Shown here: one piece after another, positions 41,799 through 41,952 of the stretch
Position numbering within the stretch: position 1 is the stretch's first letter
Layout of the letters: each line of letters begins with the position of its first letter
Virus record (IMG/VR): IMGVR_UViG_3300032324_000938
Coordinates: 1-64,000 of that record
Source: a virus
Lineage: Duplodnaviria; Caudoviricetes
Length of the DNA stretch: 64,000 bases
Direction: 5' to 3' (one strand)
Notes under the pieces: model-generated
The model's input: the letters and a program-made list of their open reading frames with translations, nothing else
Databases searched by the model: none
What the model was told of the DNA's origin: nothing
Position numbers and translations under genes: made by a program

Positions 41799-41827
41799 TT
41801 GATTTCAAATATTTGTTGATATATATT
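41799..41827 (+). promoter_or_regulatory. Promoter TTGATT-17-TATATT for leader 2
   Basis: ATG 8 nt after -10. Confidence 0.6.
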
Positions 41828-41835
41828 GTCATAGT

Positions 41836-41889
41836 ATGAATTCAGTTTCACAACCTAGTCAAGCCAGTCAACTCCCATCCGGAAGTTGA
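41836..41889 (+). CDS. Putative leader peptide of tRNA operon 2 (MNSVSQPSQASQLPSGS)
   Basis: Codons match the downstream tRNA set. Confidence 0.7.
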   Translation: MNSVSQPSQASQLPSGS

Positions 41890-41952
41890 GTGTGAGGTTG
41901 TTTGCTCTTAAAGAATCAACCCGTCACTCTACAAAAAAGATGACGGGTTTTT
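41850..41952 (+). promoter_or_regulatory. Attenuator 2: 1:2, 2:3 and 3:4 hairpins
   Basis: ACAACCT/AGGTTGT; GTGA-GGTTG/CAACC-CG-TCAC; AACCCGTCA/TGACGGGTT + U-run. Confidence 0.75.

Follow-up and report, generated by a model that had tools for sequence, protein, structure and literature searches.

A probable trp-type leader-peptide attenuator, spelled in the amino acids of the tRNA genes that follow it, in an uncultured freshwater jumbo phage

Leader-peptide attenuation is known for amino-acid biosynthesis, for a few synthetase genes and for resistance genes. To our knowledge it has not been described for tRNA genes, and a full-text literature search found no published description of leader-peptide control of tRNA genes. 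The element analysed here, which we call attenuator 2, is most closely comparable to E. coli trpL, with which it shares a short leader ORF, four segments that can pair as 1:2, 2:3 or 3:4, an intrinsic terminator formed by 3:4, and a stop codon placed just ahead of region 2. The energies of the trp leader are of a similar order to those predicted for attenuator 2, and there too the antiterminator is weaker than the terminator. Unlike trpL, attenuator 2 precedes tRNA genes and not biosynthetic enzymes, its leader is a list of seven amino acids with no run of a single codon, its mRNA is almost leaderless, and a strong promoter stands behind its terminator. Multivalent attenuators are also known, such as the ilvGMEDA leader with its Ile, Leu and Val codons and the thr leader with its Thr and Ile codons, and the phage leader resembles these in its mixed codons and in that several amino acids would be sensed by one leader. 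However, the ilvGMEDA and thr leaders sense two or three amino acids, whereas leader 2 holds seven and a sister leader in the same phage 13; the residues of the phage leaders, moreover, occur mostly in single or few copies, and their set is that of the downstream tRNA isotypes.

T-box riboswitches offer a further likeness, given that tRNA status determines which of two structures, terminator or antiterminator, their leader RNA adopts. They differ in binding a single uncharged tRNA directly, with no need for an ORF or a ribosome, and in controlling aminoacyl-tRNA synthetase and amino-acid genes. A search of the window (the whole stretch of 64,000 nt that was analysed) against Rfam returned no match at gathering score beyond tRNA and tmRNA, hence no leader family and no T-box, and at E values up to 10 the interval 41780-42140 gave microRNA noise only. 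In mycobacteria, leaderless short ORFs rich in cysteine codons (polycysteine ORFs) act as Cys-responsive attenuators (10.1101/834739). As far as the part of that report used here goes, they resemble attenuator 2 in being leaderless 5' short ORFs whose own-codon decoding controls downstream expression, and they differ in that one amino acid is sensed, protein-coding operons are controlled and the host is a bacterium; the same part of the report describes no terminator/antiterminator set of the attenuator 2 type (10.1101/834739).

The window, which is AT-rich, belongs to a virus record of 75,398 bases; its tRNA genes form two blocks (33166-38378 and 42138-44396), and a tmRNA gene lies at 44676-45058. 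A blastn search of the INPHARED phages found no close relative, with matches at the level of tRNAs only, while IMG/VR holds many relatives, whose contigs of 91-296 kb at CheckV completeness of 29-47% point to a jumbo phage of about 280-300 kb. The DNA runs containing the stretch are mainly lake-water metagenomes, and the phage is an uncultured freshwater jumbo (giant) phage. Variants of attenuator 2 were gathered from the IMG/VR relatives by pattern searches with degenerate DNA patterns, which gave a comparison set of 19 distinct variants. These relatives represent one lineage, and independent replication is provided by the second module described below and not by the number of relatives. The neighbouring protein is only 74-84% identical among them, while the module core is nearly invariant at the nucleotide level. 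This protein, which has no match in PHROGs, is present in three relatives that lack the leader (L005, L006 and L008), and synteny is lost beyond the close relatives. The elements of attenuator 2 in the window are as follows.

41799-41827, plus strand: leader promoter, with a -35 hexamer TTGATT at 41799-41804, a 17-nt spacer and a -10 hexamer TATATT at 41822-41827
41836-41889, plus strand: leader ORF 2, with ATG at 41836-41838, 17 codons and TGA at 41887-41889
41850-41856, plus strand: region 1 (ACAACCT), the 5' strand of the 1:2 hairpin, within codons 5-7
41868-41889, plus strand: inner hairpin inside 1:2, pairing 41868-41873 with 41884-41889 and 41875-41876 with 41881-41882
41888-41901, plus strand: region 2, of which 41895-41901 (AGGTTGT) is the partner of region 1 and 41888-41900 the partner of region 3
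41917-41929, plus strand: region 3, the 5' arm of the terminator and the preceding C; alternative partner of region 2
41941-41959, plus strand: region 4 (TGACGGGTT) and U-run, the 3' arm of the intrinsic terminator

An earlier, sequence-only reading of this DNA had proposed a promoter at 41799-41827 that gives a near-leaderless ATG at 41836, and both were found where it placed them. The promoter has 9 of 12 consensus matches in a consensus scan. Promoter-like sites in the window number 40 against 37 expected, so the match alone is not above chance; what makes this promoter credible is that its -35 and -10 hexamers and their spacing are kept across relatives even though the spacer sequence varies. 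The ORF lacks a Shine-Dalgarno sequence and its ATG lies 9 nt past the -10 hexamer; we assume that transcription starts here and that an ORF with a leader of 0-3 nt and no Shine-Dalgarno sequence is translated. The start, the stop and the length of 17 codons are identical in all 19 variants. The stop codon at 41887-41889, said to lie just before region 2, in fact overlaps it, as region 2 begins within the stop codon. Variation in attenuator 2 is found within the ORF at codons 2-4 and a few other sites, and outside it in the six bases that follow the stop codon, in the spacer ahead of region 3 and in the loop of the terminator. The variable sites of the ORF show no excess at third codon positions, and its invariance at the nucleotide level could hence reflect RNA function as well; the RNA-level constraint on leader 2 is at least as strong as the coding constraint.

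Regions 1-4 and the U-run hold their positions in 19 of 19 variants, and the pairings 1:2, 2:3 and 3:4 all exist there, mutually exclusive and at fixed places. Pairing across these variants amounts to 99% in 1:2, in the inner hairpin and in 3:4. The pairing of ACAACCT with AGGTTGT, which had been proposed from the sequence, is part of this conserved set; six pairs of this 1:2 helix are invariant and the seventh is kept in 16 of the 19 variants. The inner hairpin has a predicted energy of -8.0 kcal/mol and carries a single compensatory change, from C-G to U-A, in two diverged variants. The proposed terminator with its U-run is likewise present, with the arms AACCCGTCA at 41918-41926 and TGACGGGTT at 41941-41949 and a U-run that reaches 41952 and resumes at 41955-41959. 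In the minimum free energy fold its loop closes further, to 12 bp and a 7-nt loop. Our terminator scan missed the hairpin because its loop exceeds 8 nt. The terminator core is 100% paired across the 19 variants, one pair being G-C or G-U, and covariation in the apical extension is weak and depends on the register. The predicted energies in the window are -17.8 kcal/mol for 1:2, -15.2 kcal/mol for 3:4 and -8.9 kcal/mol for 2:3, the last becoming -12.2 kcal/mol when the stop-codon bases 41888-41889 are included. Folded in full, the transcript reaches -37.5 kcal/mol (z = -3.9), a stability not matched by any of 200 shuffles.

In the 19 variants, 83% of the antiterminator 2:3 is paired; sliding its 3' partners by 1-3 columns lowers the figure to 27-52%, and every variant retains 6-10 bp. 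The alternative pairing of region 2 with region 3 described by the sequence-only reading stands, while its GTGA:TCAC register does not: the conserved register is GGTTG:CAACC together with 3-5 nt before a bulged A, which pair with CGT(CA). In the window, the best 2:3 helix has 12 bp and two bulges and joins 41888-41900 with 41917-41929. In the most diverged variants (L061-L064) the six post-stop bases read TGACGA, which produces a 10-bp 2:3 helix, and region 2 is a near-copy of the start of the terminator 3' arm, as an antiterminator should look. When only the RNA left free by a ribosome stalled upstream was folded, as a model of the nascent RNA, 12 of the 13 sequence variants formed 2:3, with energies from -7.8 to -13 kcal/mol; the minimum free energy structure of the window's own nascent RNA has the shifted register GUUGA:UCAAC at -8.3 kcal/mol. 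Set against random hexamers, the six variable post-stop bases are stronger partners of region 3 than average, their ranks lying at the 2nd-35th percentile, which is only a mild trend, with the window as the weakest case. An alignment of homologues had been suggested as a source of covariation. It proved informative for the sister module, where a three-way change is seen in L035, while for 1:2 and 2:3 of attenuator 2 the 19 variants contain none; covariation cannot test these two pairings since their partner strands are invariant, the 3' strand of 2:3 (region 3) being unchanged in all variants.

The genes behind attenuator 2, and the promoter and spacer that separate it from them, are listed here.

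41965-41992, plus strand: strong sigma-70-type promoter of tRNA block 2, with TTGACA, 16 nt and a TG-extended TAAATT
41997-42137, plus strand: transcribed spacer of about 140 nt from the tRNA promoter to the first tRNA, covered by RNA-library contigs
42138-44396, plus strand: tRNA block 2, with tRNAs for Val, Pro, Leu (three), Ala (two), Ser (two), Gly (two) and Gln

The tRNA genes were called with ARAGORN at default and at lowered thresholds and with our own cloverleaf scan. The ARAGORN default misses several tRNAs with unusual T-loops in both blocks; those gained are tRNA-Leu(UAA) at 42485-42567, tRNA-Ser(UGA) at 42668-42754 and tRNA-Ser(GCU) at 42845-42937 in block 2, and His, Glu-UUC, Tyr, three Lys and Ile in block 1. 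A second tRNA-Pro(UGG) at 43218-43294 appears only at the lowest ARAGORN threshold. The isotypes of block 2 are exactly seven, namely Val, Pro, Leu, Ala, Ser, Gly and Gln. Leader 2, after its start codon, consists of six Ser, three Gln, two Pro and one each of Ala, Leu, Gly, Val and Asn, such that all seven block 2 amino acids are present and 15 of the 16 residues fall within the set. Under the phage's own amino-acid usage, the probability of at least 15 of 16 residues in the set is 1.3e-5. Nucleotide composition can be ruled out as the cause of this match, as 0 of 141,049 stop-free nucleotide shuffles of leader 2 reached 15 of 16. Among 415 small ATG ORFs in the window leader 2 ranks first, and it is the only one that covers all seven amino acids. 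Of its codons, TCA, AGT, CAA, CCA and GGA match the tRNAs Ser-UGA, Ser-GCU, Gln-UUG, Pro-UGG and Gly-UCC, respectively, either directly or by a G:U pair, while GCC, CTC, TCC, GTT and CCT require extended U34 wobble, so that the match is looser at the codon level. In the diverged variants of leader 2, 2-4 residues (from among Asn, Ile, Lys, Phe and Tyr) do not belong to the set. All relatives examined have the same seven amino acids in block 2, and those that include both blocks divide the amino acids between the blocks in the same way.

The second module, attenuator 1, spans 32696-32842 and stands before the other tRNA block.

32696-32779, plus strand: sister leader ORF 1, 27 codons, preceding tRNA block 1 (33166-38378)
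32761-32774 with 32803-32817, plus strand: sister antiterminator, 14 bp
32810-32842, plus strand: sister terminator

Each of the 13 amino acids of block 1 is found in leader 1, and Ser, Pro, Ala and Leu are absent from it (joint p about 6e-6). When the residues exclusive to one block are tabulated by leader and block, the counts are 21/2 against 1/14 (Fisher p = 1.7e-7). The homologues of leader 1 show synonymous changes at Val, Lys, Arg and Thr codons together with replacements within the set, and every recovered variant with a conserved start has one His codon, at codon 3, 4 or 7. Residues outside the set (Gly, Met, Ala, Leu) are confined to the last codons of leader 1, which form the antiterminator strand, the one exception being codon 4, which in some variants is Gln or Leu. 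In 12 of 12 variants the sister antiterminator (-18 to -23 kcal/mol) exceeds the terminator (-12 to -15 kcal/mol) in predicted stability. A three-way covariation is seen in L035, where the terminator's 5' arm has changed and both its 3' arm and the ORF strand have changed to match.

The two modules had been thought to share a terminator core and, with it, a common ancestry. The first point is borne out, since the core CCGTCA...TGACGG occurs exactly twice in the window, in attenuator 2 and at 32812-32836, against 0.01 occurrences expected. Common ancestry fits the shared core, the promoter layout (in both a -35 hexamer, a 17-nt spacer and a TATAT-type -10 hexamer, with the ATG 6 nt past the -10 hexamer in leader 1 and 8-9 nt past it in leader 2) and the position of each terminator directly before a strong promoter with TTGACA and a TG-extended -10. 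A third terminator, at 40815-40852 after a 228-aa ORF, shares the ...AACGGTTTTTTGTTTT ending with both attenuator terminators, and part of the similarity between attenuators 1 and 2 is hence the general terminator style of the phage.

The promoter at 41965-41992 was overlooked in the sequence-only reading, which had the elements of attenuator 2 right, and it limits what a switch at this place could control. It has 10 of 12 consensus matches with the TG present, is conserved in all relatives, and sits 13 nt past the U-run, between the terminator and the tRNAs. Owing to this position the tRNAs need no read-through to be transcribed, and regulation may gain little from the switch, whose output could only supplement that of this promoter, possibly at another time of infection. 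The spacer behind it (41997-42137) is conserved in some relatives, and in others it is swapped for a paralogue of 32990-33160. The latter interval is the counterpart spacer of block 1, the spacers being about 140-170 nt long, and the exchange suggests that the two may be interchangeable structured RNAs.

RNA evidence was drawn from Logan contigs of four riverine metatranscriptomes, which give neither RNA ends nor RNA levels. The contigs cover the tRNA blocks in these four data sets, and, among the pieces listed, contigs from three studies span from 41943/41947 to 42140/42222; they include the U-run and the stretch ahead of the point where transcription from the tRNA promoter is expected to begin. 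The interval 40940-41793, which represents the gene just upstream of the module, has a contig depth of about zero in all four runs, which makes carry-over of DNA an unlikely source of the contigs that cross the U-run. These contigs lend weak support to the passage of transcripts through the attenuator 2 terminator.

We propose that the element is a trp-type, ribosome-mediated (leader-peptide) transcription attenuator before tRNA block 2, a reading to which we assign a probability of about 0.68. What has been established directly is how the elements are arranged in the sequence, that this arrangement is conserved, what energies are predicted for it, that the leader codons agree with the tRNAs, and that RNA-library contigs span the U-run. 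The features of a trp-type attenuator that were seen comprise a codon-related short ORF, an intrinsic terminator before the tRNAs, an antiterminator that excludes it, a 1:2 anti-antiterminator and a stop codon placed for the masking of region 2. The strongest support is functional, and lies in the codon/tRNA match of leader 2 together with the sister module. At the computational level the attenuator reading is supported, and the observation from which it started is itself confirmed.

In outline, a host-type promoter would start an almost leaderless mRNA with the 17-codon ORF. We infer where transcription begins, that the ORF is translated, that ribosomes stall on it and that read-through is regulated. 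If no translation takes place, the 3:4 terminator would form and an RNA of about 115-120 nt would be released. The same RNA would be released behind a fast ribosome, which, on reaching the stop codon at 41887-41889, would by analogy with trpL cover region 2 and leave 3:4 to form. If the tRNA for a leader codon is scarce, the ribosome would stall early and hold region 1 while region 2 stays free; region 2 could then pair with region 3, no terminator would form, and RNA polymerase would continue into the tRNA genes, adding to the transcription that comes from the strong promoter at 41965-41992. Since the leader is spelled in the seven amino acids of block 2, the module would sense the supply of that tRNA set and may be regarded as a feedback sensor for exactly the tRNAs that it precedes. 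It probably works like the attenuator of the trp operon but senses tRNA supply.

A different account, which we consider unlikely, sees in the element an independent gene for a small RNA, equipped with a promoter of its own, a structured body and a terminator, whose product is stable or acts in trans and in which translation of the ORF is absent or irrelevant. The small stable RNAs of the T4 tRNA region are a possible parallel. The presence of an own promoter and terminator with a separate promoter following, the strong fold (z = -3.9), a core that is nearly invariant next to a protein of 74-84% identity, and variable sites without an excess at third positions would all suit such a gene. It leaves unexplained why the residues encoded in the frame are those of the tRNA set that follows (p about 1e-5; 0 of 141,049 shuffles), why a sister unit with synonymous variation matches the other block, and why start, stop and length stay fixed in diverged variants; no Rfam family was matched, and in place of a sequence free of reading-frame constraint we find a fixed frame whose composition matches the tRNA set. 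Attenuator-derived RNAs can nevertheless act in trans, for which rnTrpL is an example in the part of the source used here (PMC6614838), and the terminated RNA could have a role in trans alongside attenuation.

It is similarly improbable, in our estimate, that the ORF is translated while the terminator is constitutive, ending both the mini-gene and transcription from upstream and shielding the tRNA promoter, with the codon match serving some other end, such as a translation test without read-through as its output, or a micropeptide. The energies are compatible with this, as the terminator (-15.2 kcal/mol) is more stable than 2:3 (-8.9 to -12.2 kcal/mol), and so is the setting, in that no terminator lies between the end of the upstream gene (41789) and 41917 and the tRNA block has strong promoters of its own. 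Against it, region 2 is conserved and mimics the terminator 3' arm in diverged variants, and the sister antiterminator both outweighs its terminator and covaries with it, which pure insulation would not need. RNA-library contigs also cross the U-run, and the peptide is of low complexity and free to change within the set. Coincidence, meaning a promoter-like site, a random small ORF and the ordinary terminator of the upstream gene, is far less probable still and is already disfavoured: promoter-like sites are indeed no commoner than in shuffles and short hairpins form readily in G/T-rich stretches, yet the unit is conserved whole in 19 variants, its composition statistics are extreme, and a duplicate of the design precedes the other tRNA block.

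For the attenuator reading, a further case of the arrangement comes from Cellulophaga phage phi38:1 (NC_021796), a cultured and unrelated phage. Its ORF 35283-35360 contains seven of the seven amino acids of the tRNA block that follows, and its ORF 36744-36833, rich in Asn, Phe, Ser and Tyr, precedes a Tyr/Ser/Asn/Phe block; each of these small ORFs is followed by a hairpin and a U-run. There is no sequence similarity between phi38:1 and the window, and the host phylum and the composition of the blocks differ. We lean, by a narrow margin, towards the more general view that large phages regulate their own tRNA genes by checklist leader peptides, in which a mini-ORF would stand before each tRNA block and spell out that block's amino acids, and a shortage of any one of these tRNAs would stall the ribosome and open the terminator. 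Such shortages might arise from a mismatch with host codon usage, from host shut-off or from tRNA-cleaving defence systems. If this is true, decoding would feed back directly on the transcription of tRNA genes, and the modules may sense anticodon-nuclease defences. The molecule sensed (a decodable tRNA) would then be the product regulated (a tRNA gene), the shortest possible feedback loop. The idea bears on why large phages carry many tRNAs and how the expression of these is tuned, and it predicts a link to host defences that target tRNA. Given that the design stands before both tRNA blocks of this phage family and also occurs in the cultured phi38:1, it is testable at the bench.

Several minor observations concern promoters, protein genes and tRNA genes elsewhere in the stretch. 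Similar sigma-70-type promoters lie in or before the tRNA blocks at 32852-32887, 32942-32972, 35744-35778 and 42772-42800. The strong promoter family, to which 41965-41992 belongs, combines TTGACA with a TG-extended -10 that is often GTGTGGTA. TATATATT was considered as a phage-specific promoter motif and was set aside, its 23 sites against 14 expected being a weak excess. The 228-aa ORF at 40108-40794 has no PHROG match and shows the highest RNA-contig depth among the protein genes of the stretch in the four metatranscriptomes, whereas the gene next to it, at 40887-41789, has next to none.

Seven tRNA genes, those for His (33261-33335), Glu-UUC (33511-33585), Tyr (35206-35291), Lys (35816-35894), Lys-UUU (36791-36869), Ile (37231-37304) and Ser-GCU (42845-42937), have regular acceptor and anticodon arms and T-loops such as GGCAGCA, AGCATTA or similar instead of TTCGAAT; they were missed by the ARAGORN default and mostly by Rfam. 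At 33344-33419 there is a tRNA-like gene with an enlarged anticodon loop, in which ARAGORN reads CTCT as an anticodon of four bases; the gene may encode a tRNA-Gln(CUG) whose loop is expanded (with a U1-A72 pair) or a quadruplet decoder. A further tRNA gene, at 34944-35069, is split by about 51 nt in the anticodon region, and RNA contigs of two runs have a joint that skips 34975-35027 (51 nt), as would be expected if the insert is removed or if relatives have an allele that lacks it. Within 43414-43609, RNA-contig joints skip 54 nt (43504-43559, in three runs), and further joints skip 188-192 nt (from 43414/43420 to 43607/43609).
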